A program made the position numbers and the translations under genes. A stretch of DNA of 64,000 nt from an uncultured virus (IMG/VR IMGVR_UViG_3300037466_003572). Its lineage: Duplodnaviria; Heunggongvirae; Uroviricota; Caudoviricetes. Numbering within the stretch: the first letter of the stretch is position 1; every line of letters starts with the position of its first letter. The notes beneath the pieces were generated by a model. That model made no database searches and was not told the DNA's origin. It saw only the letters and a list, made by a program, of their open reading frames with translations. The stretch lies in the IMG/VR virus record IMGVR_UViG_3300037466_003572; one strand, written 5' to 3'. Positions 5,251 to 31,339 of the stretch are shown here, piece by piece.

Positions 5251-5409
5251 TAATCATGATCGCTTCGCTCTGTTTATCGTATTCTAAAGAATACTCAAAC
5301 GTATGCTCTAGCGTTATTCACTTCTTATGTATTTATTGCTAGCAATCTTTCAAAGAAAGAAAAGAAAAGTTCCGCCAAAAGAAAAGAAAGAAATGGAGAC
5401 CATCACACA

Positions 5410-5964
5410 ATGATTCAATTAACGTATCACATCCAACAAAGATACGTGCAGCGCATCATGAATATCCAAAACGAAGAAGAAGCACGTTATTATCTCGCTG
5501 TAAACAATGCAGACGTTATTAAAAAGGTGTACGAGCTATTTCGAGCAGCACGGTTTATCGGAAGACTACCTTATGAAAAACGAAATAACGTAATGTGCGA
5601 TTTTTATATTACTGAAGAACATGTATTATTGATCGTTGAACATCACACACAAACGGCAATGACGCTTTATCCGGTAAAAATAAAAGAGAAGACAATCGAA
5701 AATAAAGATGAAGTCAATCACTATTTAAAGCAAATAAATATTAATGATAATCGCTACGGGGAACTTAATCGCATCAAAGAGTCCACCGATTTACTCAGCC
5801 GCAACTTAGAATATGCCATTGCCCGTAAGAAAGCAGAACTAGAGACGCTCGAAGATGAGCTTAACAAAAGCATCGAACTTAGTAAATCTATTAAATGGGA
5901 AATGACTGAAGCAAAGCGCAAAAGCAAAGATTGCTTAAATCGCCTTCGCTGGGGAATGAATTAA
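5410..5964 (+). CDS. hypothetical protein with C-terminal coiled coil
   Basis: 184-aa ORF, GGAG SD. Confidence 0.75.
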   Translation: MIQLTYHIQQRYVQRIMNIQNEEEARYYLAVNNADVIKKVYELFRAARFIGRLPYEKRNNVMCDFYITEEHVLLIVEHHTQTAMTLYPVKIKEKTIENKDEVNHYLKQININDNRYGELNRIKESTDLLSRNLEYAIARKKAELETLEDELNKSIELSKSIKWEMTEAKRKSKDCLNRLRWGMN

Positions 5965-6040
5965 AAATATTTTTCAAAATTGCCGATAAATACTTTTTTT
6001 ATAAAAACTTTTAAGATAACATTAACTGGAGGACAAACAA

Positions 6041-6448
6041 TTGAGACTCGAACTTAAAATACAACGCGTCAGAAAACACGGAGCAGCATTTAAAATCGCA
6101 GGATATGTTTCTCTAACGGAAATACTCGATAAGCCGATCGCTACCGTTTTTAATAAAACAGACCGGGAACCACTGTTTGAACTTAAGAGAATCTATCACA
6201 ACGGATACTTTGATTTCGACTTCGATGAACACACGTTCGCTATCACTCATGAATACGTATTTAAAATGAGCTCCACAGACGGCTTTAATGACGTCAAGAT
6301 GCGCCGAGAGCTCTTGGACGACCTAAAGGTCCAGCTGAGTAATATCATGCGTCAGATACGCTTAGAGCTCGTCTCAGGCATACATCCATCGGAAACACCG
6401 GAAGAAAGAATCAGAAAGATCGTAACTGGAGAAGATATATTTTGCTAA
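6041..6448 (+). CDS. hypothetical protein, paralog of 6771-7223
   Basis: GGAGG SD; shared ELKIQRVR and RLEL.SGI.PS.T..ERIRK motifs. Confidence 0.75.
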   Translation: MRLELKIQRVRKHGAAFKIAGYVSLTEILDKPIATVFNKTDREPLFELKRIYHNGYFDFDFDEHTFAITHEYVFKMSSTDGFNDVKMRRELLDDLKVQLSNIMRQIRLELVSGIHPSETPEERIRKIVTGEDIFC

Positions 6449-6465
6449 CCTTTAGGAGGAATAAC

Positions 6466-6666
6466 ATGACAGAAGAAAATTTACTAGAATTATTAAAAGA
6501 TACGCACGCCATTTACGTTGAAAGTTTGGACGAGTACCAAGAACTTAAAAAGTACAGCTACGATAAAGCATTCCAGTTCAAACGCGAGCAAGATAAATGG
6601 TATATTGAAACCATTACAATTTATATAGATGCCATTCTAATTTTAAGGGGATGCAAAAATGATTAA
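6466..6666 (+). CDS. hypothetical protein
   Basis: AGGAGG SD before ATG 6466. Confidence 0.65.
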   Translation: MTEENLLELLKDTHAIYVESLDEYQELKKYSYDKAFQFKREQDKWYIETITIYIDAILILRGCKND

Positions 6667-6802
6667 ACAATGCGATAAATGTCATGGGTACTCACATGTT
6701 ACCCACACAATTGAAAAAGATGAAGAAGAATACATTTTATGCGACGACTGCTATAAGGAGGAAAACAAAAATGGAACTAAAAATACAACGAGTACGCCAT
6801 GA
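6659..6802 (+). CDS. 47-aa CxxC...CxxC zinc-finger protein missed by ORF track
   Basis: MIKQCDKCHG...ILCDDCYK; overlaps neighbours in operon fashion. Confidence 0.55.
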   Translation: MIKQCDKCHGYSHVTHTIEKDEEEYILCDDCYKEENKNGTKNTTSTP

Positions 6803-7223
6803 AGGTAATTTATATAAAATTTACGGCAGTGTAAAAGAAGAAACAATTTATGATAATCCGGTAACAATCTATGATCCTGAAGATGGTCCAACATTATATG
6901 CAAATATAGTAAAAGATTCGTATAACGTAGTTTTCGATATCGATTTTGATGATAGAAATTTCGCGATTATAAATGAACACACGTTCTTACTAGACTTTAC
7001 TAGTGGGATGTCAGACGAAAACAAAATATTAAATGAAGTAAAACAGGCGCTACCATTCCTAGTTCAAGAAAAGCGGCTTGAATTAATTTCAGGAATCTAT
7101 CCAAGTATTACAGAAAAAGAAAGAATAAGAAAAGAAATAGATAAATTAATGGACGCTAAACAAAGAGAAGAAGCAACTTGGTCCTACGAAATGATTAAAG
7201 CACTGATTTTGGGAGGGAAATAA
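6771..7223 (+). CDS. hypothetical protein, paralog of 6041-6448
   Basis: AAGGAGG SD before ATG 6771. Confidence 0.75.
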   Translation: MELKIQRVRHEGNLYKIYGSVKEETIYDNPVTIYDPEDGPTLYANIVKDSYNVVFDIDFDDRNFAIINEHTFLLDFTSGMSDENKILNEVKQALPFLVQEKRLELISGIYPSITEKERIRKEIDKLMDAKQREEATWSYEMIKALILGGK

Positions 7224-7225
7224 CC

Positions 7226-7618: not shown

Positions 7619-7629
7619 GAGTGAAGACA

Positions 7630-8181
7630 TTGGATGCAAAAGATAATGGATTGAAAGAGTTCCTTTCTTTAATGGAAGAAAAATTAATAGTTTACGAAGA
7701 TGGTAAATTATATAAGTTTTTCAATAGGAGTAAGAAAACGAAAATAGAAACTCCTATAGAAATAGGTCATATATTGCCATCAGGTTATCGGCGAATAAGC
7801 GTCAATATAAACGGAAGAAAGAACACAATGTTGGCGCATCGCCTGGTTTATGCTTATTTCAATGGGCTTACAGAATTACCACCAAAATTGGAAGTTAATC
7901 ATATAGACGGAGACAAACTAAATAACAGAATAGAAAATTTAGAATTAATAACTCCGAAAGAAAATGTGAATCATGCATTCAATACAGGTATCCGTCCCTT
8001 AAACAGTGGCGAACACAACCACAATTCAAAACTTAAAAGTTCAGAAGTAGAAGAGATTAGAAGACTTTTACAAAAAGGCGATATAACACAAACAGAAATT
8101 GCAAAAAAGTTTAATTGCAACAGTTCGACCATCTCAAATATAAAAACAAATAAACGTTGGAGGAAACCATCACATGACTAA
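7630..8181 (+). CDS. free-standing HNH endonuclease with C-terminal HTH
   Basis: AHRLVY...VNHIDGDKLNNRIENLELIT..EN; TQTEIAKKFNCNSSTISNIK. Confidence 0.9.
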   Translation: MDAKDNGLKEFLSLMEEKLIVYEDGKLYKFFNRSKKTKIETPIEIGHILPSGYRRISVNINGRKNTMLAHRLVYAYFNGLTELPPKLEVNHIDGDKLNNRIENLELITPKENVNHAFNTGIRPLNSGEHNHNSKLKSSEVEEIRRLLQKGDITQTEIAKKFNCNSSTISNIKTNKRWRKPSHD

Positions 8182-11359: not shown

Positions 11360-12331
11360 ATGATTATTCGCGGAAAAGTAGCAGACGTTGATATTAAATA
11401 TGAACTAGAACAATTCGCTTGGCACAGAAGTCAATATGTTGACGGGAAATTACTCGCATGCAGTCCGTTTCGAAACGAAGCAACGCCGTCATGGTTTTGT
11501 AGAATCGAAGATTACCGTGATATTCCTGCTGGAACATGGAGCGATTCCGGAGCAACCGATCATGAATGGTCATCTGGTAGTTTCCCGAGATTACTTGCAT
11601 TCCTCAAAGGGATAACAGAAGAAGAAGCAGAAGATTATCTTCTTGAGACATACGGCAGCTTCACCGAAGGATATGATGAAATCACTTTAAAAGTACCGGA
11701 ACTTAAAATTAACAAGCGTCGTGAATATATTCCATCTTCAAAGCTCGATAGTTTTGAAAAGGATTATTCCTATTTAGTTGGTCGTGGTATCTCGGAGTCA
11801 ATCGCTGCCGATAAACAAATCTATTTTGATAAGCAAAGAAACGCGATAGCAGTGCCCTGGAGAGACGCCGCAGGAAGAATCGTTAATATGAAATACAGAC
11901 GCGTTGATTCAAAGATATTCTGGTATGAAAAGGGGTATACCCCAATTTCAAAATTAATTTATAATATTGATGAGATTTATCGCAAGAACGTACGTACGGC
12001 GATGATTACAGAAGCAGAGATCGATGCACTAACGGCATGCAGCGTCATTCCGGCAGTTGCACTCGGTGGAAGTAATTTCTCGAAAAATAAAGCGGAAATT
12101 TTAATCAAGAGCCCAATTCAACATCTTATTATTGCTACTGATAATGACGGGGTCGGACGAAAAACGGCGCTATTGATAGCGAACAGCTTGAGAGATTATA
12201 TGAAAATATCATTATTCATATTCCCACCAGGAAAAAAGGATATCAACGATCTTACGATTGACGAAATAAATAACGGGATAGAAAACGCGAAACCACTGAA
12301 GCGATTTACAAACTTTAAACGGGCGTTATAA
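11360..12331 (+). CDS. DNA primase (TOPRIM)
   Basis: ACSPFRNEATPS N-terminal domain; ITEAEIDAL, ATDNDGVG, KDIND. Confidence 0.85.
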   Translation: MIIRGKVADVDIKYELEQFAWHRSQYVDGKLLACSPFRNEATPSWFCRIEDYRDIPAGTWSDSGATDHEWSSGSFPRLLAFLKGITEEEAEDYLLETYGSFTEGYDEITLKVPELKINKRREYIPSSKLDSFEKDYSYLVGRGISESIAADKQIYFDKQRNAIAVPWRDAAGRIVNMKYRRVDSKIFWYEKGYTPISKLIYNIDEIYRKNVRTAMITEAEIDALTACSVIPAVALGGSNFSKNKAEILIKSPIQHLIIATDNDGVGRKTALLIANSLRDYMKISLFIFPPGKKDINDLTIDEINNGIENAKPLKRFTNFKRAL

Positions 12332-12368
12332 ACACGCCCAAAATATTTTTTAAAAAACTTTTCAATTC

Positions 12369-12402: not shown

Positions 12403-12531
12403 GTGTAAGGAAAGAAAGTTAAAAAATTGTAAAAATATTTTCAAAAAATGTTCAAAACCTATTTATTTCACTATCAAGATTTAATATAATAGATATATAG
12501 ACAAACCATCACATACTTAGGAGGAAATAAA

Positions 12532-13149
12532 TTGAAAGAAAGTAGAAAATTAGCCATGAACCATCACGCCACGGAGTACATACGCACCGGAGACGTACAA
12601 GCATTCGAAAGTTTGTACAAGGAGTTTTTAGAAGAGTACGGAAGCTGGTTCAAAAAAATCGCGCAAAATGAAGTACGAAGTTGTGACACAGCAAATGTAA
12701 GAGCACATTACGAAGACGCATTACTTTATGCACTGAAAAAACACACGCCAGAGAAAAATTTCACACACTTATTCTTATGGATGGTCAAAAAAAGAAAAAT
12801 TAATATGATTAAAAAACAAAGATTTGAAGATAAAAATACACACACAGAAATAAAAAAAGAGACCGAAGACGCACCGGAAGATCCCATCACAAATCTCCAA
12901 GAAGACTTCAATCTCGAACAACAAACACTCGATACCTTAGCCAATACCGAGCTCACACGATTTTTCTTCGATAATGCACCAGACGCCATCACTCGTCGGA
13001 TACTCGAAGAAATACCGAAACACGAAACATTAAACGGGGTAGCAAAAACAGTAGGATTACAACTTATTCAAGTTCAACGAAAACTAGAAAAGCTGCGAGC
13101 TCTTTACGCAAAAAGCACCTACAAAGATGTAATTTTTTTCGAACAATAA
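12532..13149 (+). CDS. phage RNA polymerase sigma-70-like factor
   Basis: GDVQAFESLY region-2-like start, F..LFLWMVK, C-terminal HTH TLNGVAKTVGL..IQVQRKL. Confidence 0.6.
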   Translation: MKESRKLAMNHHATEYIRTGDVQAFESLYKEFLEEYGSWFKKIAQNEVRSCDTANVRAHYEDALLYALKKHTPEKNFTHLFLWMVKKRKINMIKKQRFEDKNTHTEIKKETEDAPEDPITNLQEDFNLEQQTLDTLANTELTRFFFDNAPDAITRRILEEIPKHETLNGVAKTVGLQLIQVQRKLEKLRALYAKSTYKDVIFFEQ

Positions 13150-13258
13150 AAACTTAGGCACTGCTTTTATTATTCTATTAATAGTATAGCCAAAATATTC
13201 AGTTTTGATACAACTTTGTTGTTAAAATAGTTAACTATTGTTAACCGACTACAAACAC

Positions 13259-13324: not shown

Positions 13325-13696
13325 ATGAACATTAAACGAGGAGATATCTACATGGTCGACATGGGAACACAGAACAAACAAGGCAGCGAACAAACCGGAA
13401 TCAGACCATGTTGCATTATCCAAAACAATTTAGGAAACAAGAAATCACCAACGACTGTAGTTGCGCTATTAACAAGCAAAGATAAGCGCACAAGTGAAAA
13501 CAAACCGTATCCCATGCACGTACATCTAACGCCGGATGATATCATCGGTGAACTTGACGGCGATAGCATTATTTTATGCGAGCAAGTATATACCATCGAT
13601 AAATCGCGTCTTCGTCGTAAAAAAGGTTATATCGATCCTGCATCAAGTAAAATGAACGATTTAGATGACGCAATCAAAGTTTCACTCGGGCTATAA
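13325..13696 (+). CDS. mazF: second PemK/MazF-family endoribonuclease, no adjacent antitoxin
   Basis: IKRGDIY...GSEQTGIRPCCIIQNNLGNKKSPTTVVA...ILCEQVYTIDKSRL...AIKVSLGL. Confidence 0.9.
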   Translation: MNIKRGDIYMVDMGTQNKQGSEQTGIRPCCIIQNNLGNKKSPTTVVALLTSKDKRTSENKPYPMHVHLTPDDIIGELDGDSIILCEQVYTIDKSRLRRKKGYIDPASSKMNDLDDAIKVSLGL

Positions 13697-13819: not shown

Positions 13820-14551
13820 ATGTCATTTATTAAAGCACGTGGAGAACAAGCTGCACAAGCTGCTGCAAAGGAAAAACAATCTTACGAGAAATTGCTGAAA
13901 ACTTTTAAGTCCGGTGATTCATACAAAGTACGTATCCCAGGAGCAGACGTATTTGCAATGTACGAATCTCACGGTGTATTCGCTAAAGGCGGACAAGGTA
14001 TTTACACAACACCATGCGTTCACGGAGGAGATTGCCCGTATTGTGCGGCAGTACAAAAGTATTGGGACGCTTATAACGCAGATAACACTGATGAAGATTC
14101 TAAAACAATCGCATCACAATTATCGAAAAAAGAGCGTTATTTAATCGGGTTCATCAATCTTGAGGACAAGTCACCAATTGTATTGGACTTCTCTAAAAAG
14201 CAAGCAAATGCGCTAATTAGTGTTATCAAAAAGAACGTAAAGAAAATCGATAAGTTCGCATTTGAAGTATCAAAATCAGGTACCGGTCAAGGAACAATCG
14301 TATCTCTTGATATTATCGTTGATCCTGATGAAGATTTAACCGATGCACAGCGCAAGAATTTCGAAGATAGCGCCAATATGAAATGGGAAGATGAGTTTTT
14401 CGAAGTATTACCGGTGAAAACAATTGCCGAAGGAATCGAAGATTTACGTAAATTCGGATTCGATATCAGTTTAATTTCAAGTGCTGCACCATCACAACCA
14501 GCAGCAAACGAAACAAATGAAGCATTCCAGGGTCTCGACGAATTATTTTGA
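13820..14551 (+). CDS. gp32-like single-stranded DNA-binding protein
   Basis: His plus PC..GGDCPYC zinc-site pattern, acidic/aromatic C-terminus LDELF, position in replication block. Confidence 0.65.
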   Translation: MSFIKARGEQAAQAAAKEKQSYEKLLKTFKSGDSYKVRIPGADVFAMYESHGVFAKGGQGIYTTPCVHGGDCPYCAAVQKYWDAYNADNTDEDSKTIASQLSKKERYLIGFINLEDKSPIVLDFSKKQANALISVIKKNVKKIDKFAFEVSKSGTGQGTIVSLDIIVDPDEDLTDAQRKNFEDSANMKWEDEFFEVLPVKTIAEGIEDLRKFGFDISLISSAAPSQPAANETNEAFQGLDELF

Positions 14552-14598
14552 TTCGTCGGGTTTACCCGATACCATCACAAATTTGGAGCGTGAAAATA

Positions 14599-20219: not shown

Positions 20220-22499
20220 ATGACGGTCATTTTAAAAGACAATGGAAGACGTAAACTTCCTTTTGAGTCAAAACGATTAATTAAATTCATTGAAAAAGCA
20301 GCATCTGATTATCAGCATCTTGATATCGATGAGTTTGTGAATAAAACAATTAAAACCATCTCCGCAAAAGATGAGTACGAAGCAGAAAATATTACAAATC
20401 TTTTAGTGTTAAATGCACTAGATTACGTTGGAGTTGATCCCGGGCAACACCCGGACTGGACGTACCTCGCATCAAGAATCTACTTAAACAGTTTATATAA
20501 AAAAGCAAGCAAAAGCCGCTGTTATGATTCAGCTAAAAAATATGGTGACTTTTATTCACTCTTAAAGCTACTAGGATCCAAAGGAATCTACTCTTCTAAT
20601 CTCCTAAGAGACTACACAAAAGAAGAAATTGATTTTCTATCAGAACACATCGAACCAGAAAAGGACAAGTTATTCACGTATATTGCAACAAGAACACTTG
20701 CTGACCGTTATCTTGCAACAGACCACGATAAAAACGTGTATGAACTGCCGCAAGAGCGATGGATGGTTATCGCGATGGAAATCATGCGAGAAGAATCAAC
20801 GGACCAACGATTACAGCTCGTTTTAGAATCGTACTGGGCGTTATCAAACCTTTATATGACGGTTGCAACCCCAACGCTCGCTAATGCCGGCAAATCATAC
20901 GGACAATTATCCTCATGCTTTATTGATACCGTCGATGACAGCTTACGCAGCATTTATGATTCAAATACTGATGTTGCCACATTAAGTAAAAACGGTGGCG
21001 GAATTGGCGTATATGCCGGGTTTATCAGATCACGTGGTTCCGATATTAAAGGATTTAAGAACGTCAGCAGCGGTACAACACCTTGGATTAAGCAGTTAAA
21101 TAACACCGGCGTCAGCGTCGATCAGCTGGGTACACGTGGTGGAGCGATCGCAATCTACCTTGATGTATTCCATAAAGATATATTTTCTTTCCTTGATTTA
21201 CGATTAAACAACGGGGATGAAAGATTACGTGCGCATGATATCTTCACAGGCGTTTGTATTCCGGATTTATTCATGGAACAAGTTGAAAAACGCGGTGAGT
21301 GGTACCTGTTTGATCCTCATGAAGTAAAACAATTAATGGGTTATTACCTGCAAGATTTCTACGATGAAGAAATCGGCAGCGGAACATTCCGTGATAAATA
21401 TTACGAATGTGTAAATCATCCATTGCTATCTCGTGAACGTGTTAACGCAATCGACATCATGAAAGCAATCATGAAATCACAACTTGAAACTGGTACGCCT
21501 TATATGTTCTACCGCGATGAAGTAAACAGAATGAATCCAAATAATCATGCCGGAATCATCTACTGCTCGAACTTATGTAGCGAGATAACCCAAAATCAAA
21601 ATCCGACAATGGTCGTTGAAGAAAAGTTAACTGAAAATGACGAGTTCATCGTTATCTACAAAAAACCAGGTGATTTTGTCGTATGTAATCTATCAAGCAT
21701 CACACTAGCAAGAGCGTATGACGTACTGGAGAGACTGATTCCGATTCAAGTTCGTATGCTTGATAACGTAATTGATTTAAACCGCGATAGACTAGAAGTG
21801 CTTCAAGCAGTCGCAACAAACCGGAAATATCGCGCTATTGGGCTTGGTCAAAGCGATCTTCACCACTTACTAGCGATTAAAGGAATCAAATGGGAAAGCG
21901 AAGAAGCAGTTCAGTTTAATGACGATTTATACGAAAGAATCGCTTATCTAACAATCGAATCATCAATGAAACTAGCTATCGAAAAGGGCGCATATCCAGC
22001 ATTTGTTGGTTCGGATTGGCAGACCGGTAAGTATTTCGAAAAACGTGGTTATGAAACTAATAAGTGGAAAGATTTATCACTTATGGTGCAAGCGAACGGA
22101 ATACGAAATTCCTACCTTATGGCTACGGCTCCAACGGGCACCACAAGTATCATCAGCGGTGCAACAGCTGGAATCGACCCAATATTCAAGCGCGTGTATT
22201 CCGAAGAGAAAAAAAATTACAAGATTCCGGTAACAGCTCCGGACTTAAGTTCAAAGACTTTTTGGTTTTATAAAAATGCGTATGAGCTAGACCAGCACTG
22301 GAGTATCGCACAAAACGCAGCACGTCAAAAACATGTGGACCAATCGATCAGCTTTAACTTGTACGTCAAGAGCGACATTAAAGCAAAAGATCTGCTTGCG
22401 CTTCACATGGATGCATGGAAATCACGTCTAAAGACGACGTATTACGTCAGGTCAACATCATTAGACGAGCTCGCTGATTGCGAAAGTTGCTCCGCGTAA
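20220..22499 (+). CDS. nrdA: class I ribonucleotide reductase alpha subunit
   Basis: ATPTLANAG, LSSCF, SNLCSEI, VCNLSS, APTGTTS, TYY, C-terminal CESC. Confidence 0.95.
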   Translation: MTVILKDNGRRKLPFESKRLIKFIEKAASDYQHLDIDEFVNKTIKTISAKDEYEAENITNLLVLNALDYVGVDPGQHPDWTYLASRIYLNSLYKKASKSRCYDSAKKYGDFYSLLKLLGSKGIYSSNLLRDYTKEEIDFLSEHIEPEKDKLFTYIATRTLADRYLATDHDKNVYELPQERWMVIAMEIMREESTDQRLQLVLESYWALSNLYMTVATPTLANAGKSYGQLSSCFIDTVDDSLRSIYDSNTDVATLSKNGGGIGVYAGFIRSRGSDIKGFKNVSSGTTPWIKQLNNTGVSVDQLGTRGGAIAIYLDVFHKDIFSFLDLRLNNGDERLRAHDIFTGVCIPDLFMEQVEKRGEWYLFDPHEVKQLMGYYLQDFYDEEIGSGTFRDKYYECVNHPLLSRERVNAIDIMKAIMKSQLETGTPYMFYRDEVNRMNPNNHAGIIYCSNLCSEITQNQNPTMVVEEKLTENDEFIVIYKKPGDFVVCNLSSITLARAYDVLERLIPIQVRMLDNVIDLNRDRLEVLQAVATNRKYRAIGLGQSDLHHLLAIKGIKWESEEAVQFNDDLYERIAYLTIESSMKLAIEKGAYPAFVGSDWQTGKYFEKRGYETNKWKDLSLMVQANGIRNSYLMATAPTGTTSIISGATAGIDPIFKRVYSEEKKNYKIPVTAPDLSSKTFWFYKNAYELDQHWSIAQNAARQKHVDQSISFNLYVKSDIKAKDLLALHMDAWKSRLKTTYYVRSTSLDELADCESCSA

Positions 22500-22575
22500 T
22501 ATGTACGACTGATAGTAACGGGACCGGATTTCTCCGGTTCCCACACTATTAGTATATGAAATTAGGAGTGGGATT

Positions 22576-22818
22576 ATGAGCTACTTAACACAAAAAGCAA
22601 AGTATTACATCGAAACGAATCATGGAATTGCGTTATCACCGGAGAGTATTCAAGCAATCGAATACGTGGAAAAAGCAACAAAAGATTTAATCTATGAAGC
22701 TACTGATTATGAAAAAGTAAAATATTTCAACGAACTTAGACTTTGGGCAGTTCGAAACGGGAAGGACGAAATACTAGAACTTATTGAACGCCTGAAACAA
22801 GGAGAGAGCATCAGATGA
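22576..22818 (+). CDS. hypothetical protein between RNR subunits
   Basis: AGGAG SD, overlaps nrdB start. Confidence 0.65.
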   Translation: MSYLTQKAKYYIETNHGIALSPESIQAIEYVEKATKDLIYEATDYEKVKYFNELRLWAVRNGKDEILELIERLKQGESIR

Positions 22819-23843
22819 AAAAGAGAAAGTTATATGATACTACTGCACCAAACGTATCTACTAAAATTATAAATGGACGTTCTAGTAACGTATTGAATTG
22901 GGATCAAACAAGGTTAGATTTCGCTTACCCGCTATATAAGATTATGCTCGGTAACTTCTGGATAGCATCTGAAATTAATATGACAACCGACGTAAAGAAC
23001 TGGAAAAAAGATTTAACTCCGGATGAAAGAGAATCTTTCAAAAAGATTATTGGATTACTTGCATTTTTAGATTCAGTACAAACCGATTTTGTTGGACGAG
23101 TTGCAGATTACGTAACTGACTCCAGTATCGTTGCACTCTTACAAGTAATCGGATTCCAAGAAGTAATTCATAACGAATCATACTCGTACGTGTTATCTTC
23201 ACTGGTACCAAAACACGAACAAGACGAGATATTCGATTACTGGCGTCATGACAAGGTTTTACTCGAGCGAAATCAATTTATTGCTGACGGGTACGAGGAG
23301 TTTACAAATAATCCATCACCGGATTCATTCCGTAAAGCGTTAGTATACGACGTCATTCTCGAAGGATTATTTTTCTACAGCGCATTCGCTTTCTTTTACA
23401 ACTTAGCACGAAATCAAAAAATGGTATCAACGAGTACAATGTTATCTTATATTAATCGCGACGAGCAGCATCACGTAAGACTATTTGCGAATGTTTACAA
23501 GACACTTCTTGAAGATTATCCGGAACTTGATACGGATGCTAATCGAGCGTGGGCAACCGAAACATTCCGCAAAGCAGCAGCACTCGAAGCTAAATGGGGT
23601 AAATATATTATCGGAAATCGCTTTGAAGGAATCGATGAAGATTCACTCCAAGAGTATATCGAGTTCATGGCGAATAAACGGGCGAATGAAATGGGACTGG
23701 ACAAACCGTTTGAGCACCGGAATAACCCATTCAAATGGATTACCGCGTATGAAAACGCAAATGCATCGAAATCCGACTTCTTTGAACAAAAACCACGAAG
23801 CTATGCGAAAGTATCCGAAGACAATGGATTTGATGACCTTTAA
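22815..23843 (+). CDS. nrdB: class I ribonucleotide reductase beta subunit
   Basis: FLDSVQ, EVIHNESY, LEGLFFYSAF, RDEQHH, DFFE. Confidence 0.95.
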   Translation: MKKRKLYDTTAPNVSTKIINGRSSNVLNWDQTRLDFAYPLYKIMLGNFWIASEINMTTDVKNWKKDLTPDERESFKKIIGLLAFLDSVQTDFVGRVADYVTDSSIVALLQVIGFQEVIHNESYSYVLSSLVPKHEQDEIFDYWRHDKVLLERNQFIADGYEEFTNNPSPDSFRKALVYDVILEGLFFYSAFAFFYNLARNQKMVSTSTMLSYINRDEQHHVRLFANVYKTLLEDYPELDTDANRAWATETFRKAAALEAKWGKYIIGNRFEGIDEDSLQEYIEFMANKRANEMGLDKPFEHRNNPFKWITAYENANASKSDFFEQKPRSYAKVSEDNGFDDL

Positions 23844-23855
23844 GGAGAGAGAAAA

Positions 23856-24095
23856 ATGACATTCAGCGAAGCATTAGAAGAGTTGAAATCAGGAAAGAAA
23901 ATTAAACGAGCACATTGGTGTGGTTATTGGTTTATTGACGACAAAGTAGTTATTTCAGAAGATAATGAAAGCATAGATTCTCCAATGTTTGAGGCTAAAA
24001 TGATTATCGCTAAATTAAAAGATAATGCTGGTTTTGCCCCTGCACAAGCGTACCAAAACGATTTGCTAAGCGAAGACTGGGAAGTGGTTGAGTGA
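23856..24095 (+). CDS. DUF2829 / Tad2-like protein
   Basis: MTFSEALEELKSGKKIKRAHW...QNDLLSEDWEVVE. Confidence 0.75.
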   Translation: MTFSEALEELKSGKKIKRAHWCGYWFIDDKVVISEDNESIDSPMFEAKMIIAKLKDNAGFAPAQAYQNDLLSEDWEVVE

Positions 24096-24493
24096 GCGGA
24101 CTTCAAAAAGAACTCGAACGAATTAAAACGCTGGTTAAACCGCTAAAAATGAGAGTTTTATTCGGAGAACATTTCTCGCTGGCGATTATCTGTACAAGCG
24201 AAGAAGAACGAGTTTATTTAAGTCATAACTTACCAGATTACGAAGATGAAATATTCTACGATGTATTAAACATCAACAATAAAAACAGCTTTCCACCGGC
24301 AGTATACATTCCGTATAACGCCATTATATTCACACTGCAAGCACAAGAAGATTTATTTTACAGCGTAATAGATGATTACTTTAAAAATAAAAATGGACAA
24401 ATCATCACATCACTTCAAGAAATATTTGACCTAATGGACCATGATGACTACACCATTCTAGGAGGATTTAAGAATGTTACCGGAGAACAATAA
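24092..24493 (+). CDS. hypothetical protein
   Basis: ORF coupled to neighbours. Confidence 0.65.
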   Translation: MSGLQKELERIKTLVKPLKMRVLFGEHFSLAIICTSEEERVYLSHNLPDYEDEIFYDVLNINNKNSFPPAVYIPYNAIIFTLQAQEDLFYSVIDDYFKNKNGQIITSLQEIFDLMDHDDYTILGGFKNVTGEQ

Positions 24494-24725
24494 AGAATTT
24501 TTCATTCAACCTAAATCAAGCAGACAAATTAAGCGTGAGTTTAAAAGTTGGTTTTTCAAACAACACACAAAATCACTTACAGATGCCATCATTAACAGCG
24601 ACGAAACAATCATTGCCAATCGCAAAATGGCACGAAGAATGGCACGTTACCAAATTAGACAACGTTTAATCGAGCAGCACAGAACTAGCAAAAAAGATAG
24701 AACGTCAGAAAATAAAGAGCAATAA
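24474..24725 (+). CDS. basic hypothetical protein
   Basis: AGGAGG SD. Confidence 0.6.
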   Translation: MLPENNKEFFIQPKSSRQIKREFKSWFFKQHTKSLTDAIINSDETIIANRKMARRMARYQIRQRLIEQHRTSKKDRTSENKEQ

Positions 24726-24789
24726 AAAAAGCAGGAATCCCTAAACAGATAAAAATATCTTTCAAAATAACACCTCGGAGGTATTTATT

Positions 24790-25008
24790 ATGAATAAAGA
24801 AATCGAAAACCGTTTTACTTTTCATAAAGCGACAGAATCGCAAGGAGAAAAGTACACAACGATAAGAGGATCAGCAAAAGAACTCGCCCTCCTTTTAAAT
24901 GAATTATGTCCAAACTCTCGTGAATTATCCGTAGCGCTAACAAAACTTGATGAAGTAGTTATGTGGGCAAATGCAGCGATAGCAAGAAATGGTGAACGTG
25001 ATGAATAG
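24790..25008 (+). CDS. Acb2/Tad1-like helical hairpin protein
   Basis: IENRFTFH...LCPNSRELSVALTKLDEVVMWANAAIARN; GGAGGT SD. Confidence 0.7.
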   Translation: MNKEIENRFTFHKATESQGEKYTTIRGSAKELALLLNELCPNSRELSVALTKLDEVVMWANAAIARNGERDE

Positions 25009-25158
25009 CATCGGCAAAATCGTTATCTTGCTCGGTGCATCCATTTTAGCGGTAGATTATCTTGATAAACGAAAAAAACAAAAAGAATTTGAAGAATATC
25101 TCCGGGTAATAAACGCATCAGAAAAAACAAAAATCGGGTTTAAAAACGACTAGGAGAG

Positions 25159-25908
25159 ATGACGATGATCGAGAAAAATCCATCATACAAAGAATATCAA
25201 ATGCCGGTTTGGAAATGGTTTCAAGATAAAGGTTTCAACGTACTAGCGGACAAGCATCAATATGCTTATGCACAAAGTTTACTAGCAAGCCCGGACGTTA
25301 TACAAGCTGTGTTCTGCGAGGCAGCGGCAGGAACAGGGAAAACAACGTTAGCTTTGCTTGCCGGAGCATACGAAGTAGAAATGGGAAATTACGATAAAAT
25401 AATTTATGTCAGAAATTACACACCAATTAGGGACCAAGGTTTCCTCCCAGGCTCATTAGAAGAAAAATCACTTCCGCTTTATGCGCCGGCAATTGATGCC
25501 CTTGAACACGTTCAGCCGGGATATTACGAAAGATATTCAGTAGTCAATCCCGTAACCAAACAACAACCGAAAATTGTTTGTACAACAACGGCATTCACTC
25601 GCGGTATTACGTGGAATAACAGTTTTATAGTCATCGATGAAGCACAGAGCTTCGATCTCGAGGAATTACAGGCAGTATACACGCGTGCAAGCGATTCGTG
25701 TAAGATCATCACAACCGGTTCCCTAAGACAAATTGATAATAAAAAATTACGTCGTTACGGCGGATTAACACCGTTTGAAGTATATATGGAGCATTTCCGG
25801 GGAACAAACGTCACTTTCCACAAGCTGCTTACTAATTACCGCGGATGGTTCAGTAATCACTCGGATAACGTAATGGAAACGATAAAAGCGCTACAAGGTG
25901 ATAAGTAA
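25159..25908 (+). CDS. phoH: PhoH-family ATPase
   Basis: AGTGKT, GFLPGSLEEK, RGITW, IVIDEAQ, QID. Confidence 0.9.
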   Translation: MTMIEKNPSYKEYQMPVWKWFQDKGFNVLADKHQYAYAQSLLASPDVIQAVFCEAAAGTGKTTLALLAGAYEVEMGNYDKIIYVRNYTPIRDQGFLPGSLEEKSLPLYAPAIDALEHVQPGYYERYSVVNPVTKQQPKIVCTTTAFTRGITWNNSFIVIDEAQSFDLEELQAVYTRASDSCKIITTGSLRQIDNKKLRRYGGLTPFEVYMEHFRGTNVTFHKLLTNYRGWFSNHSDNVMETIKALQGDK

Positions 25909-27090: not shown

Positions 27091-27282
27091 ATGACCGGGA
27101 CGATCATCATCAAACTAACCGAAGGTGACAGCGTTCAGATTATCGCAACGAAAACAGAATATGAATGGTACTGTAATATGCTAAAGCAATCAAACGGAAT
27201 TAAAATAGACAACGACGGAATTGAAATGTTTATACCCTATACTTCTATCAAACTAATAAAGTTCGTACGAGGAGTGAAGTAG
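27091..27282 (+). CDS. hypothetical protein
   Basis: ATG directly after previous stop. Confidence 0.55.
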   Translation: MTGTIIIKLTEGDSVQIIATKTEYEWYCNMLKQSNGIKIDNDGIEMFIPYTSIKLIKFVRGVK

Positions 27283-27423
27283 CAATGGAATCTTGCAATC
27301 ATGAACTCACCACGTTTTACACAAGTGAAGGCGAATACGTTCGCTGCATCAAATGTAATGAAGTATTTATAGCAAATCCATATCTTCGAAATAAATTTAA
27401 GAAATTGCATGAGGTGAAGAAAG

Positions 27424-28056
27424 ATGTTAATTGTAAAACAAAAAGCTGAGTTTTTATGGGCAACTCCAAATATTGCTGAAACTATCGAAGCTGCCACCAG
27501 GACGTGCTACAAATCTGAAGATAAAATAAAGCCCGGTTCCGCTGAAAAATTATACAACCAAGTAGTCAAACAATCCCACCACGACAGTGTTAGCGAACAC
27601 GCCATTATATCACTAAGGATAACAACAGACCGGGCAACACTTGCGCAGTTCACGCGTCACAGATTATTCTCCTACAGCGTGGAATCGCAAAGATACGTGA
27701 ATTACGCAAAAGAGAAGTTCGGAAACGAAATACAAGTCATCCAGCCGTTTAATATTCCGGATAAAACAGAGGTATTTGAAATATGGAGAGAGGCGATGAT
27801 GGACGCAGAAAAATCGTATTTTGCTCTTATCAACCGCAAGGTCAATCCGGAAACAGCTCGGATGGTACTCCCAAACTCAACAAAAGTGGAATTCGTTGTA
27901 ACCGGGAATGTACGAGTATGGCGCAACTTCTTTAGTCTTCGTATGGGATCGCACGCACAAGCGGATATTCGCGATTTAGCAAATAAAATCTATCAGCAAA
28001 TGTTAAATAACAATATACCATCGTTTTTATTCGATGATATTATCGGGGGGCACTAA
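27424..28056 (+). CDS. thyX: FAD-dependent thymidylate synthase
   Basis: RHR-x7-S motif (RHRLFSYSVESQRY), HDSVSEH, ARMVLP, HAQADIR. Confidence 0.95.
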   Translation: MLIVKQKAEFLWATPNIAETIEAATRTCYKSEDKIKPGSAEKLYNQVVKQSHHDSVSEHAIISLRITTDRATLAQFTRHRLFSYSVESQRYVNYAKEKFGNEIQVIQPFNIPDKTEVFEIWREAMMDAEKSYFALINRKVNPETARMVLPNSTKVEFVVTGNVRVWRNFFSLRMGSHAQADIRDLANKIYQQMLNNNIPSFLFDDIIGGH

Positions 28057-28239
28057 ATGAGAAATTATTTCAAATGGTTATTCAATAAAAGAGTATTTTA
28101 TTCCTGGTCGTTTTTCACAGTATTCACCATAGGTGATTTAATTTTTAAAGACGATCCAACAAATGATTTATGCGTATTAATCGGGATTACGCTAGCAACA
28201 GTTTATTTCTATGCCGAGGAGAAGAAAAAGAATGATTAA
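28057..28239 (+). CDS. small membrane protein
   Basis: two hydrophobic segments, coupled ORF. Confidence 0.55.
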   Translation: MRNYFKWLFNKRVFYSWSFFTVFTIGDLIFKDDPTNDLCVLIGITLATVYFYAEEKKKND

Positions 28240-28531
28240 TTTTTTATTAAACTTATTACCGTCGATCGCCGGGATACTGCTCGGCATCTGCTACGTACCT
28301 CAAATCGTTACTACGATTAAAACAAAAGATGTTTCCGGAATGAACTTATGGTTTTGGATTATCTTAGTTATCGCGCTTTTAATGCTTACAACAAACGCAT
28401 TCGTTATTTTCTTAAGTACCAGTGTTTGGGGATATTTTTTGACGGAGTGCTTTAATTCCGGATTAGCAATCGTCATGTTAACTTTAGTAATTAAATATAG
28501 AAAACGACAAAAGAAAGCGAAGATTAAGTAA
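28232..28531 (+). CDS. PQ-loop / SemiSWEET-like membrane protein
   Basis: YVPQIVTTIKTKDVSG, three TM segments. Confidence 0.8.
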   Translation: MINFLLNLLPSIAGILLGICYVPQIVTTIKTKDVSGMNLWFWIILVIALLMLTTNAFVIFLSTSVWGYFLTECFNSGLAIVMLTLVIKYRKRQKKAKIK

Positions 28532-28728
28532 TGCCACTATTTACACTAGAATGCGAAACATGCAACGAGAAACATGAAAAAATCGTTTCATACGCTAAAA
28601 AAGATGAACAAACTTGCCCGGTATGTGGAAACGTGTTAAAACATAAGCCAACATTCCTCACCGTTTCCCACGGGCTACCGAATGGATTCAGCAGTAACCG
28701 AAGACCACCGAAGAAAGAGGTAAAATAA
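28531..28728 (+). CDS. FmdB-like zinc ribbon protein
   Basis: MPLFTLECETC...CPVCG. Confidence 0.75.
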   Translation: MPLFTLECETCNEKHEKIVSYAKKDEQTCPVCGNVLKHKPTFLTVSHGLPNGFSSNRRPPKKEVK

Positions 28729-28731
28729 CAG

Positions 28732-29241
28732 ATGGAAATTTGGAGACAATCTCCGTATTACCCAGAGTATGAAATAAGCAATTTAGGAAACTTACGTCAT
28801 AAAGAAAATAAAAATAATTTGAAGTATTCTATACACAAAAAAGGATACCCACAAATTAACTTAAAAGTTGACGGAAAAAGAGTATGTAGAAAGATACACA
28901 GATTAGTAGCTGAAGCATTTATTCCGAATCCGGAAAGAAAACCTCAAGTTAATCACATTAATGGAGATAAGTTTGATAACCGGGTTGAAAATTTGGAATG
29001 GGTAACTAACGGTGAAAATGGTAAACACGCATATAGAACGGGGTTGAAAATTGCTCCGGTAGGAGAGAATCACCAGAGATCATTATTAACGAACGAACAA
29101 GTAATTTATATATTCCAATCAAGTAAAACAAGGAGAGAATTAGCGGAAAAGTTCAATGTTTCTCTATCGACTATTACTGCAATTTGGAATAAACACAATT
29201 GGTCCACAACAACAGCGGGATTAAGGAGAAATTCAATATGA
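28732..29241 (+). CDS. NUMOD4-HNH homing endonuclease (free-standing)
   Basis: MEIWR..YEISNLG; IHRLVAEAFIPNP..VNHINGDKFDNRVENLEW. Confidence 0.92.
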   Translation: MEIWRQSPYYPEYEISNLGNLRHKENKNNLKYSIHKKGYPQINLKVDGKRVCRKIHRLVAEAFIPNPERKPQVNHINGDKFDNRVENLEWVTNGENGKHAYRTGLKIAPVGENHQRSLLTNEQVIYIFQSSKTRRELAEKFNVSLSTITAIWNKHNWSTTTAGLRRNSI

Positions 29242-29777
29242 AAAAGAAAACGTACCTTGCCGGAGATATGCTGAATAAAGGCGCACAAATGCTACGAGCA
29301 ATAGAGGCAGAAGAACTTCGTAAAATCGATAAAGTAGAACTTTATTCTCCGCAAGAAGATAAATCAGTAAACGATAAGCAAAATGCTGTTCAAGAAGGTC
29401 TTGCAGAACGTATATTCCGCAATGACACGAAAGCAATACTTGATAGCGAAGTAATCGTTGCTGATATTTCTCAAACGCTTGGCACATCGATTGAAATGGG
29501 TCAAATTTGGGGCATTAATTATATGTTAGAACGTTTAGATAAAATTCTAACAAACAGTGACGACGCAAGCGAAGTATCAACAAAAGTAAGTGCATTACTA
29601 AGGGAAATACCACGCAAGACCGTTTACTGGAAAACAGAAGACGTACGTGACCACGAGCATCCAGAAGTTGGATACCGTCGCAGTCATTCATACAATGCGT
29701 ATCTAATCGGATGTTTACTTGCAATCGCAGGTGAACCGAAGACGTTTGATGAGATCATCGAAGAATTACAAAAATAA
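29238..29777 (+). CDS. nucleoside 2-deoxyribosyltransferase-like protein
   Basis: YLAG, YSPQE, IFRND, GTSIEMG. Confidence 0.75.
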   Translation: MKKKTYLAGDMLNKGAQMLRAIEAEELRKIDKVELYSPQEDKSVNDKQNAVQEGLAERIFRNDTKAILDSEVIVADISQTLGTSIEMGQIWGINYMLERLDKILTNSDDASEVSTKVSALLREIPRKTVYWKTEDVRDHEHPEVGYRRSHSYNAYLIGCLLAIAGEPKTFDEIIEELQK

Positions 29778-29797
29778 GCATCACTCAGGAGGTAATC

Positions 29798-30439
29798 ATG
29801 AGACAACGAGAAAAGCGAAAGAGAATAGCAGCATTGGTGATCACATCAACAGCCGTGGTTACGCTATCTCTTTCTCTTACTATTGTTGCCAACAAGGTGA
29901 CAACTATACAAGACCAACTCCAAAAATCCAATGTGAAGGCAGCTACGCTGCTTCGAAAAACGCATCAAATGCAAAAAGAAAATAGTATTAACCAGAAAAA
30001 ACTTATTTCGTTGAAAACCGAAATAAATAAAAAAGATGAACAAATAAATATTTTAAATAAAAATATCAAAAACATCAAAAAAGATAATGAATCACTGAAG
30101 CAAGAAAATAATTCATTATCAAGCCGCGTGATTAACACGAAAACATTCGAAGTAACCGCGTATACCAATTATGCGGAAAGTACCGGGAAGAATCCCGGTG
30201 ATGCTTCGTTTGGTATTACCGCAAGTGGTGAACGTACTATCCAAGGTCGCACTTTAAGCTGCCCGAAACAATACCCGTCAGGAACGAAAATGTTAATTGA
30301 AGATATTGGTGTTCGCGTATGCACTGACACCGGTTCCGCCATCACCGGAAATAGGCTGGATTTATACGTGAATAACTTAAATGACGCAATTCATTTCGGA
30401 CGCAAAAAACTAAAAGTTGAAATATTGGAGGAAGTATAA
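29798..30439 (+). CDS. membrane-anchored coiled-coil protein with 3D (cell-wall lytic) domain
   Basis: TM helix, coiled coil, VTAY..GITASG..DTGSAITGNRLDLY. Confidence 0.85.
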   Translation: MRQREKRKRIAALVITSTAVVTLSLSLTIVANKVTTIQDQLQKSNVKAATLLRKTHQMQKENSINQKKLISLKTEINKKDEQINILNKNIKNIKKDNESLKQENNSLSSRVINTKTFEVTAYTNYAESTGKNPGDASFGITASGERTIQGRTLSCPKQYPSGTKMLIEDIGVRVCTDTGSAITGNRLDLYVNNLNDAIHFGRKKLKVEILEEV

Positions 30440-30649
30440 ATGGATAACTTTGAAAAAGAAGTACAAGCAGAACTCGAAACAGCGATGGAACATGAAATGG
30501 AAGTATATTACCGAATCGTTCATTTTGCTAACTGGCTCGATCAAGGCATCAAGGTAACAGATGACGAGATGCTGAAAAAAGTGTTTGAAAATTATATGAA
30601 AATATTCGGAATCTATTTAAGCACGGAGGAAGAAAACGATGAAGAATAA
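30440..30649 (+). CDS. hypothetical protein
   Basis: GGAGG SD. Confidence 0.6.
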   Translation: MDNFEKEVQAELETAMEHEMEVYYRIVHFANWLDQGIKVTDDEMLKKVFENYMKIFGIYLSTEEENDEE

Positions 30650-30920
30650 CGAGTTTGATTTATTAGTAGACGAGCTTACGAAAGAACTCGCTGAAACGCT
30701 AAAGCGCAAGAATCGTGATTATGGCGATTCTTTCGCAAAGCAATACGCAAAGTATGGAATGGCATCAAGCATGATTCGTATTGAAGATAAAATAAGCAGG
30801 CTAGAGACGTTGGTTAAAAACAATGAGAAAACGAACGTTCAAGACGAAAGTTTAGATGACACTTTACTTGATTTATGCGGTTACTCGTTATTAACGCTTA
30901 TTGAACGAAAGAGGGGCTAA
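30639..30920 (+). CDS. DUF1599 / nucleotide-modification-associated domain 1 protein
   Basis: RKNRDYGDSF...RIEDKISRL...DESLDDTLLDLCGY. Confidence 0.8.
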   Translation: MKNNEFDLLVDELTKELAETLKRKNRDYGDSFAKQYAKYGMASSMIRIEDKISRLETLVKNNEKTNVQDESLDDTLLDLCGYSLLTLIERKRG

Positions 30921-30922
30921 TT

Positions 30923-31306
30923 GTGGGAGCAGTCGGGGTAGATATACACAAAAACGCAAGAGAGATTGATTGCAAATACGCGCTGGATACAACAACCGGA
31001 GTTGAAATATTACTCGCTGATGTACCGTACCTCAAAGAGAGAAGATACATCGAAGGAGATTTCGATGCAGCCGTCATACTAGCGGACCTGGAGAAAGCAT
31101 TCGAGATCGCAGCAAAAGGTAATATACGTGAAGCGTTGACAGCGAAACAACGAAGAATGCTAGAGTTGTACCATATCGAAGGATATAATTTACGTGAAAT
31201 AGGCGAAATGTACGGCGTATCACATCAAAGAATCGATTGGATTTTATCGGTTGCAATCGAGCGCTTAACAAAAGTATTCAGAGATTGGGATTACGGAGAA
31301 TTATAA
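30923..31306 (+). CDS. sigma-70 region 4-like HTH protein
   Basis: LTAKQRRMLELYHIEGYNLREIGEMYGVSHQRI. Confidence 0.75.
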   Translation: MGAVGVDIHKNAREIDCKYALDTTTGVEILLADVPYLKERRYIEGDFDAAVILADLEKAFEIAAKGNIREALTAKQRRMLELYHIEGYNLREIGEMYGVSHQRIDWILSVAIERLTKVFRDWDYGEL

Positions 31307-31339
31307 ACCATCACATTCTATTTAAGGGAGACCATCACA

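Follow-up and report, generated by a model that had tools for sequence, protein, structure and literature searches.

Whether a short word that recurs on the sense strand of phage early genes is a regulatory signal, in which nucleic acid it would be read and by which molecule, is the question raised by a stretch of DNA from an uncultured virus of the Caudoviricetes (IMG/VR record IMGVR_UViG_3300037466_003572). The stretch, referred to here as the window, is 64,000 nucleotides (nt) long and represents almost the whole genome of an uncultured siphophage, the parent contig of which measures 64,970 bp. Genes from position 1 to about 32.8 kb are carried by the + strand and comprise immediate-early units and replication, nucleotide-metabolism and sigma-like genes, and those from 32.8 to 64 kb are carried by the - strand and encode structural and lysis functions. 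An original prediction, made from the letters of the window, had proposed that the nine-mer ACCATCACA is placed in translation-initiation regions as the target of a phage RNase or repressor, the obvious candidates being two antitoxin-less MazF proteins. The analysis described here found a strong excess of the word, and more precisely of its seven-mer core CCATCAC, on the sense strand of part of the early half. It tentatively assigns to the core, with a rough probability of 0.3, the role of a cleavage or processing word in messenger RNA.

As originally counted, ACCATCACA has seven exact copies in the window, all on the + strand, and none on the - strand. Its expectation was 0.37 in 100 dinucleotide shuffles, in which the largest count was 2, and the rough earlier estimate of about 0.2 copies per strand was thus of the right order. 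The seven copies and their contexts are as follows.

5399 to 5407, + strand: copy 1, in the spacer between the Shine-Dalgarno (SD) sequence GGAG (5395-5398) and the ATG at 5410, reading GGAG-ACCATCACA-CA-ATG
8166 to 8174, + strand: copy 2, between the SD sequence GGAGG and the ATG at 8174 of the DnaC-like loader gene, reading GGAGG-AA-ACCATCAC-ATG
12505 to 12513, + strand: copy 3, in the leader of the sigma-like gene 12532-13149
14488 to 14496, + strand: copy 4, inside gene 13820-14551
14571 to 14579, + strand: copy 5, intercistronic, 6 nt ahead of the SD sequence of the PD-(D/E)XK gene 14599-14943
31307 to 31315, + strand: copy 6, immediately 3' of the stop codon of the sigma region-4 gene 30923-31306
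31331 to 31339, + strand: copy 7, in the spacer between SD sequence and start, reading GGGAG-ACCATCACA-TTG, with the start at 31340

Six of these seven copies lie within positions -35 to -1 of a start codon (binomial P = 4e-7, as this zone covers 6.3% of the early half), in agreement with the earlier statement that six were found within about 35 nt of a start. The contexts described for the three copies between SD sequence and start (genes 5410, 8174 and 31340) were recovered, as were the copies ahead of the sigma-like gene (12532) and of the endonuclease/polA unit (14599), in which polA comes after the PD-(D/E)XK gene. Gene 5410 is the first gene after the RepA_N/DnaD-like initiator gene, copy 2 also falls within the final codons of the HNH gene 7630-8181, copy 3 stands 14 nt past a TATAAT (12485-12490) and 7 nt ahead of the SD sequence, and the product of gene 31340 is a protein of 136 amino acids (aa) without assigned function. 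Near copies had been noted at 875, at 4471 and in the leader of gene 29798, and all three are present.

875 to 883, + strand: near copy ATCATCACA, in the leader of mazF-1, 13 nt past a TATAAT (856-861)
4471 to 4479, + strand: near copy AGCATCACA, 3 nt past a TATAAT (4462-4467) and at the head of the long replication operon, of which gene 4511 is the first
29777 to 29785, + strand: near copy AGCATCACT, which contains CATCAC, in the leader of gene 29798-30439 (3D-domain protein)

Terminator-like sites on the + strand lie at 4393-4417 and next at 12321-12339.

Although the nine-mer is over-represented as such, the functional unit is better described as the 7-mer CCATCAC, and in this respect the original prediction needs to be modified. 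The window holds 22 copies of the 7-mer on the + strand and 1 on the - strand, and the 18 copies that fall in 1-32800 are all on the sense strand, which supports the description of the motif as non-palindromic and confined to that strand. When 1-32800 was shuffled with each protein sequence and its codon usage kept and each intergenic stretch permuted, the mean count was 1.86 (standard deviation 1.35, maximum 8) and 0 of 1000 shuffles reached 18, the result that the prediction had anticipated for a codon-preserving background. A codon-only shuffle, in which the intergenic copies were held fixed, gave 6.82 against the 18 observed. Under a second-order Markov model CCATCAC is the top over-represented 7-mer of the early half (Poisson P = 2e-17), and the leading 6-mers of that half, CATCAC and CCATCA, are its sub-words. 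The strand that carries the word has more G than C, and the word runs counter to this composition. The statistical signal is among the cleanest obtainable from one genome. The cores outside the nine-mers, and the gene that holds three of them, are given below.

7475, 9265, 9521, 12561, 12884, 12986, 14609, 15447, 19375, 23313 and 30339, + strand: 11 further CCATCAC cores, inside early and middle genes
12532 to 13149, + strand: sigma-like gene, 205 aa, with a nine-mer in its leader and cores at 12561, 12884 and 12986 in its body

Several properties of the core indicate what kind of signal it is. First, 13 copies lie inside genes (the one at 8167, in the overlap of HNH and loader genes, included), where they encode Pro-Ser, x-Ile-Thr or His-His and occupy frames 0, 1 and 2 in 5, 5 and 3 cases; because all three frames are used, selection acts on the nucleotides and not on the peptide. 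Second, the word is sharp. Single-base variants that arise by transversion are not enriched (18 in sum against 16.8 expected), those that arise by transition amount to 22 against 7.6, and the changes that are tolerated lie mainly at the ends of the word (TCATCAC, 5 against 1.8; GCATCAC, 6 against 1.7; CCATCAT, 6 against 1.2). The flanks show a preference for A at position -1 (12 of 22 copies) and for A or T at position +1 (16 of 22). Third, the core is biased to gene starts, less strongly than the nine-mer. Six of the 18 copies lie within -35 to -1 of a start (P = 6e-4), and the claim of placement in initiation regions, which stands for the nine-mer, does not extend to the other 12. Eight lie within 35 nt on either side of a start (P = 9e-4), among them the coding cores at 12561 and 14609 at +29 and +10 of their start codons, and 10 lie farther away. 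Intergenic copies account for 5 of the 18, compared to 11.6% of the sequence (P = 0.049).

The copies are also unevenly distributed. Thirteen of the 18 fall in 5.4-15.5 kb, in a cluster of genes that includes the gene after the initiator, the HNH, loader, helicase and sigma-like genes, gene 13820, the PD-(D/E)XK gene and the start of polA. Three more surround the second sigma-like gene at 30.3-31.4 kb, only 2 are found among the nucleotide-metabolism genes of 15.5-30.3 kb, and the first 5.4 kb holds no copy of CCATCAC. Under the codon-preserving shuffle, neither strand of the late half proved to be enriched (+ strand, 4 against 2.83; - strand, 1 against 0.54), so that the raw 4:1 bias toward the + strand vanishes, and the relaxed word and both 6-mers were at or below expectation there. 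The excess is therefore a feature of the sense strand in part of the half that is transcribed rightward and not of one DNA strand genome-wide.

The copies are furthermore predicted to be accessible in RNA. The opening energy, i.e., the predicted cost of unpairing the 7 nt in a 147-nt context, averaged 1.12 kcal/mol for the 18 copies compared to 2.10 kcal/mol with shuffled flanks (Wilcoxon P = 0.0056) and to 2.62 kcal/mol for a control set from the same region, which consisted of 70 other 7-mers lacking G and rich in C and A (Mann-Whitney P = 2.8e-4). Relative to flank shuffles, the copies stood at -0.72 and these controls at +0.34 (P = 0.0025). For the in-gene copies at 12884, 12986, 14489 and 15447 the predicted opening cost is about 0 kcal/mol, and the nine-mer at 14488 would lie in the 13-nt loop of a predicted 6-bp hairpin (14482-14506) with an opening energy of 0.00 kcal/mol. 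The leaders 12470-12580 and 31270-31380 folded worse than 199 of 200 shuffles. The proposal of an RNA target is upheld in that the copies stand in RNA predicted to be unpaired, as the target of an RNase or a repressor needs to be; that its reader is an RNase instead of a binding protein, and which protein reads the word, we infer.

Three arguments lead us to prefer RNA as the level at which the word acts. First, all 18 copies are on one strand of a region transcribed in one direction, and the excess ends where transcription flips. Second, the copies are biased to initiation regions. Third, they are predicted to be accessible. Collectively, and with all RNA-level readings taken jointly, these observations and fold predictions tilt the odds slightly to the side of a signal that is read on single-stranded RNA of early and middle messages. 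Such a signal would constitute a sequence-defined post-transcriptional regulon in a phage of the Bacillales, with about 18 defined sites and few candidate readers; we know of no such regulon in Bacillales phages, although no search aimed at one was made.

A polar site in one strand of the DNA would be the main alternative at the level of DNA, and we regard it as improbable, if worth serious attention. It could be a nick site like those of phages T5 and tf, a priming or primosome signal (for instance one for priming on the lagging-strand template rightward of an origin near 5.3 kb), an ops/RfaH-like signal in the non-template strand or a Chi-like site. A DNA site would suit the presence of 22 of 23 copies on one strand, the sharp 7-bp word and the occurrence of copies in both coding and non-coding DNA, and the predicted accessibility would equally suit single-stranded DNA. 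T5 and tf, moreover, are known for nick consensus words confined to one strand, and the early half encodes two endonucleases that could serve such a site.

7630-8181 and 28732-29241, + strand: HNH endonuclease genes (Pfam)

However, the excess ends at the transcription flip, while a genome-wide replication, packaging or Chi signal should continue beyond it. The complement GTGATGG is no outlier in 201 Bacillales genomes, with 231-903 copies per genome, which is about the expectation from composition by our own estimate, and 5 Bacillales genomes hold few copies of the nine-mer (14-46 each); the candidate of a host Chi site was rejected on these counts. Its reversed control word is rarer than GTGATGG in the Bacillales genomes, but it contains TAG. 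The Chi word AGCGG is unskewed in the phage, with 52 copies on the + strand and 54 on the - strand. A promoter element, either two-block or -10-only, was also tried and rejected, as no second block is shared among the copies and three copies lie 0-2 nt from the start codon, which is too near for a -10 element. If the sites nevertheless proved to be DNA nicks or priming signals, they would provide a new example in a Gram-positive siphophage.

Within the RNA level, the reading to which the probability of about 0.3 applies is that CCAUCAC, extended to ACCAUCACA where it stands in non-coding leaders, serves as a word for cleavage or processing in the manner of GGAG, which the T4 RegB endoribonuclease cuts in the SD regions of early genes. 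By this analogy the word would mark the messages of the replication-loading genes, of the two sigma-like genes and of the polA unit, and the consequence of a cut would depend on where it falls. A cut between SD sequence and start (genes 5410, 8174 and 31340) would switch translation off. A cut upstream of the SD sequence (copies at 12505, 14571 and 31307; genes 12532 and 14599) would separate cistrons, and a cut inside a gene would lead to faster decay. A strong predicted hairpin (about 14530-14567) ends a few nucleotides 5' of copy 5, so that a cut at 14571 would leave an upstream message ending in a stable hairpin; in the predicted fold, the hairpin-then-motif geometry of 14530-14579 looks like a processing site. 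Cleavage is favoured for two reasons, namely that the in-gene copies fit it, whereas a pure initiation repressor needs none, and that it gives the geometry of the sites a function.

The contrast with a repressor deserves to be drawn out, as the original prediction had left both open. According to this alternative, ACCAUCACA at ribosome-binding sites would be a translational operator on which a phage or host RNA-binding protein represses or activates initiation, much like RegA of T4, in a regulon consisting of gene 5410, the DnaC-like loader, the sigma-like gene, the PD-(D/E)XK/polA unit and gene 31340. It accounts well for the six nine-mers at most 35 nt upstream of a start, for the three that form the spacer between SD sequence and start, for the two cores at +10 and +29 and for copies that are unpaired in predicted folds, and its targets, like those of RegA, would be genes of replication and transcription. 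The 10 cores that lie more than 35 nt from any start would be superfluous for it, though, and a Pfam scan of 50 + strand open reading frames (ORFs) revealed no RegA-family or other RNA-binding domain, which leaves the operator with no candidate protein. We consider it unlikely.

If the word is cleaved, the two MazF proteins are candidate trans-acting RNases on the evidence of their sequences, although their link to the word is one of inference only. Their genes are the following.

904 to 1326, + strand: MazF-1, PemK/MazF family, 140 aa (Pfam PF02452, 94.7 bits; PHROG 1936)
13325 to 13696, + strand: MazF-2, PemK/MazF family, 123 aa (Pfam PF02452, 90.6 bits)

Both scores are far above the gathering cut-off of PF02452 (23.1 bits), and the two proteins are 44% identical to each other. 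The earlier description of them as antitoxin-less held up: no antitoxin was found in the neighbouring genes 503-808, 1403-1747 and 13820-14551 with Pfam (E up to 1), PHROGs and PADLOC, and a promoter-like TATAAT stands between 503-808 and mazF-1. No other sequence-specific RNase could be recognised in the ORFs that were scanned. The nearest solved chains of both are MazF/EndoA of S. aureus and Bacillus (E about 1e-23 to 1e-20). Alignment to these chains shows that both retain the equivalents of G18, E20, R25, P26 and T48, in the motif GSEQ(T/S)G(I/K)RP and the Thr of ..LLT or ..VMT, with the catalytic Arg25 and Thr48 equivalents in place. In the B. subtilis enzyme, according to passages of PMC8634880, R25 and T48 are required for activity, and G18 and P26 contact the A and the first U of UACAU, which is the cut word of B. 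subtilis and S. aureus MazF.

The proposal is that one or both of these enzymes cut (A)CCAUCAC(A) and thereby time replication and sigma expression, the latter being a conjecture; it is a sub-case of the cleavage reading, and we hold it to be doubtful. In its most far-reaching form, an antitoxin-less MazF, most plausibly MazF-2, would have evolved a 7-nt specificity for CCAUCAC, the word being seeded into the replication and sigma messages of the phage itself, a scenario that we likewise find hard to credit with more than a small probability. Its attractions are several. MazF sites of up to 7 nt are described (PMC8634880 and PMC10893535), that of a Haloquadratum MazF among them (PMC8634880). 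The mazF-2 gene lies within the densest cluster of the motif. MazF-2 is unique to the lineage, as is the word, and its nearest other homologue is 57% identical, which is weakly compatible with a link; a near copy stands in the leader of mazF-1. Compared to the S. aureus chain, MazF-2 carries insertions of 2, 4 and 2 residues in loops, and a changed specificity is therefore possible. On the other side, both proteins are nearest to UACAU-type enzymes and keep the G18 and P26 equivalents that read this word (PMC8634880, in the passages mentioned), while CCAUCAC contains no UAC. UACAU itself is mildly low on the phage sense strands (27 against 40, and 19 against 24), and such a mild under-representation points to neither specificity. 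In a literature search on phage-encoded MazF, the titles and abstract openings among the matches listed contained annotation-level mentions only.

Comparison with other genomes provided little to set beside this one. The nearest record (G001) matches 17.4 kb at 99.5% identity and retains 13 of 13 shared copies; about 0.4 losses would be expected at such divergence, too few for the retention to be informative. Protein scans of viral contigs with the DnaC-like loader, PolA, MazF-2 and MazF-1 yielded only the contig of that record, and megablast of 8 kb against phages gave no match. An alignment scan with PolA found 77 loci, of which 44 are 50-57% identical, and a PolA scan of cellular genome contigs returned mainly chromosomal PolI genes. 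A search of viral contigs for the paired pattern ACCATCACA-N5-35-ACCATCACA was set aside: it produced at least 120 stretches, of which 80 were retrieved, and five loci taken from the densest 25 strand rows were coding repeats, mostly in large low-GC contigs. A full-text literature search with the word in four spellings gave no phage or bacterial paper by title.

A number of these and other observations weigh against the cleavage reading. The evidence comes from a single genome, the only close relative being 99.5% identical and the next ones, at 50-58% PolA identity, lacking the word. None of the 44 IMG/VR loci at 50-57% PolA identity is enriched (CCATCAC, 0-3 copies on the + strand), and none of them has any word near P = 1e-17, the best reaching 2e-10 with a G-rich word. 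In the 59 kb of Bacillus phage Mgbh1 there are 2 nine-mers. A MazF homologue (57% identical to MazF-1) was found in a single relative, L043, which has no comparable word, its top word being TCATACC (6 against 0.38), which is not at gene starts; the co-occurrence of word and MazF in related phages, suggested as a check with the original prediction, was thus not observed, and this counts against MazF as the reader as well. The resemblance of both MazF proteins to enzymes that recognise UACAU bears on the same point. With just 2 of 18 copies in 15.5-30.3 kb, the word is not a general mark of early messages. The intergenic DNA is here nearly all initiation region, and the start bias may partly reflect freedom from coding constraint. 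Finally, the accessibility is a predicted one, and single-stranded DNA would look alike.

The restriction of the word to one lineage could also mean that it has no function and arose as a side effect when short ribosome-binding-site cassettes were locally duplicated or recombined, or through mutational bias. The existence of sub-families of copies that share longer strings (GGAGACCATCACA in two copies, AAACCATCACAT and CCATCACAA in three each) agrees with such an origin. We nonetheless judge it highly improbable: there are 13 in-gene copies in three frames over 23 kb, against a codon-preserving null of about 2 for the whole early half, the strand is uniform, the predicted structure at the copies is unusually open, and neither duplication nor mutational bias predicts the joint occurrence of frame spread, strand uniformity and openness.

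Another RNA-level explanation, to which we give very little credence, is that the copies are seed targets of a base-pairing RNA that displays GUGAUGG, either a host small RNA or an antisense RNA of the phage (e.g., from 13287-13259). A length of 7 nt, a location at initiation regions and early codons and an unpaired state are typical of small-RNA targets in general. Single C-to-U and A-to-G variants, in which G-U pairs are kept, occur more often than expected (19 against 7.0), the best sigma-70-like match within 1-20 kb lies on the - strand, at 13287-13259, and the transcript predicted from there shows AGUGAUGG as an 8-nt hairpin loop. This loop, however, is the mere complement of the copy at 12986, with G..C flanks as opposed to the A..A consensus of the nine-mer; the window contains no TGTGATGGT except opposite the copies themselves, and all four GTGATGG on late transcripts are inside late genes, so that the complement occurs in no late unit free of ORFs. 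U-to-C variants, in which pairing is lost, are also in excess (3 against 0.6), mutational decay explains the variants equally well, and Rfam detected 0 known RNA families in the window. Pairing with 16S rRNA was examined as a separate candidate and rejected, since the 16S of one Bacillales genome (L166) has no match of at least 8/9 with G-U pairs allowed. The only such match in its 4.5-kb rRNA locus falls outside the 16S gene, and none of the places listed for TGTGATGGT in this genome is at an rRNA locus.

Independently of the word, the region around 13 kb has features of an antisense transcription unit. A TTGACA-17-TAAAAT promoter match with TG (11 of 12 positions; - strand, 13287-13259) points leftward from the gap between the sigma-like gene and mazF-2, and a terminator-like hairpin lies on the - strand at 12952-12927. 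The candidate antisense RNA (12915-13252, - strand) folds well (z = -3.76) with AGUGAUGG in a hairpin loop. Together they are suggestive of a transcript of about 300 nt that would be antisense to the sigma-like gene in its 3' part.

An RNA-level signal, if real, would have consequences beyond this phage. It would bear on the role of antitoxin-less phage MazF genes (the PHROG category 'MazF-like growth inhibitor') and on the drift of MazF specificity, and a highly specific 7-nt RNA cutter would be a useful tool. In the improbable case that MazF-2 is the reader, it would silence genes by cuts between SD sequence and start and free or stabilise downstream cistrons elsewhere, and a toxin fold would have become a built-in processing or shut-off enzyme, a Gram-positive, MazF-based counterpart of T4 RegB. 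Only with a MazF fold as its reader would the system be of a new kind.

Other features of the genome provide a background to these findings. The GC content ranges from 27 to 41% across the window, and a tRNA gene search of the window found none. The closest named phage is Bacillus phage Mgbh1 (PolA, 53%), and the next PolA relatives in a collection of 5.8 billion proteins, among them prophage-like genes of Peribacillus, Cytobacillus, Paenibacillus and Virgibacillus, are at most 59% identical. The phage DNA is present in at least 11 metagenome runs from soil and rhizosphere; no RNA run is listed among those that contain it, and the four runs compared with the window consist of assembled contigs with patchy cover. 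Given these PolA relatives and habitats, the host is probably a soil member of the Bacillales. The two sigma-like genes, 12532-13149 (recognised as such by language-model features only) and 30923-31306 (127 aa, with sigma-70 region 4 by Pfam and PHROGs), form a layout that recalls the sigma cascade of phage SPO1. Gene 13820-14551 encodes a 243-aa protein of PHROG 6883, a family to which no function is assigned, that weakly resembles T4 gp32-like DNA-binding protein (E = 0.011, below cut-off), and its product may be the single-strand-binding protein of the phage. An A/G-rich tract at 5368-5375, just 3' of the RepA_N/DnaD-like initiator gene, differs in length between metagenome contigs, with 1-8 bases omitted, and the 262-nt gap at 5148-5409 may hold the replication origin.

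Additional observations concern the remaining early genes and the composition of the early half. With E = 2e-14, a 79-aa ORF at 23856-24095 hits the Tad2-like (Thoeris anti-defence 2) domain. The genes clustered at 27424-30920 include those for ThyX, for a nucleoside 2-deoxyribosyltransferase-like protein and for a 'nucleotide modification associated' protein (DUF1599), and the phage may modify a DNA base. The ribonucleotide-reductase region (20964-25299) is matched by a 40-kb contig of one metagenome run (X10) with a few dozen differences and replaced segments, from which it follows that a mosaic relative in the same habitat shares this module. GATC words are the most depleted 5-mers of the early sense strand (1-32800, + strand; GATCA, 17 against 54.8 expected; AGATC, TGATC and GGATC likewise), which suggests avoidance of a GATC-specific restriction system of the host. 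On the same strand, the next over-represented 7-mers other than SD sequences are CTTGATA (11 against 1.58) and GAAATGG (21 against 5.9).

Compared to known systems of strand-specific DNA words, the motif shows both likenesses and differences. Phages T5 and tf, the latter of Pseudomonas, have strand-specific nick sites with a short consensus on one strand, and as in these phages a short consensus occurs here some 10-20 times on one strand, far above chance. Unlike their nick words, the excess ends at the transcription flip and the copies cluster at gene starts. The Chi sites of E. coli (GCTGGTGG) and B. subtilis (AGCGG) are polar, over-represented 5-8-mers, and the complement GTGATGG is G-rich in a comparable way. 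Unlike Chi, however, the word is not over-represented in the 201 Bacillales genomes, and it is regional, not genome-wide.

Compared to known targets of MazF enzymes, which are single-stranded RNA words of 3-7 nt, CCAUCAC agrees in length and in its predicted unpaired state, but to our knowledge, and in the passages of the papers cited above, no known MazF word resembles it. An M. tuberculosis MazF is reported to remove the anti-SD sequence of 16S rRNA (PMC12274833). Unlike classic MazEF systems, the genes are borne by a phage and have no detectable antitoxin. The RegA regulon of T4 offers a parallel in that replication-related early messages carry related sequences that overlap the region of initiation. 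The sites of RegA, which are found at initiation regions only, are loose and rich in A and U, whereas the word is C/A-rich and exact and has 10 of 18 copies more than 35 nt from any start; the Pfam scan detected no RegA homologue among the 50 + strand ORFs.

The comparison with T4 RegB is the closest in terms of function. As with GGAG, a short sense-strand word would mark early messages of the phage itself, and it is concentrated at their initiation regions and ribosome-binding sites, and a cut in it would inactivate translation and aid the switch between temporal classes. Unlike the RegB target, the word is a 7-9-mer beside the SD sequence and not the SD sequence itself, many copies are inside genes, and the host is of the Gram-positive Bacillales type. 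No RegB-family domain was detected in the 50 + strand ORFs by Pfam or in 35 ORFs by PHROGs, although remote homologues may escape such scans. With no homologue of either protein found, a different word and a different host clade, the system is a member of neither the RegB nor the RegA family, and by analogy it appears to work most like RegB on GGAG or like RegA on its regulon.

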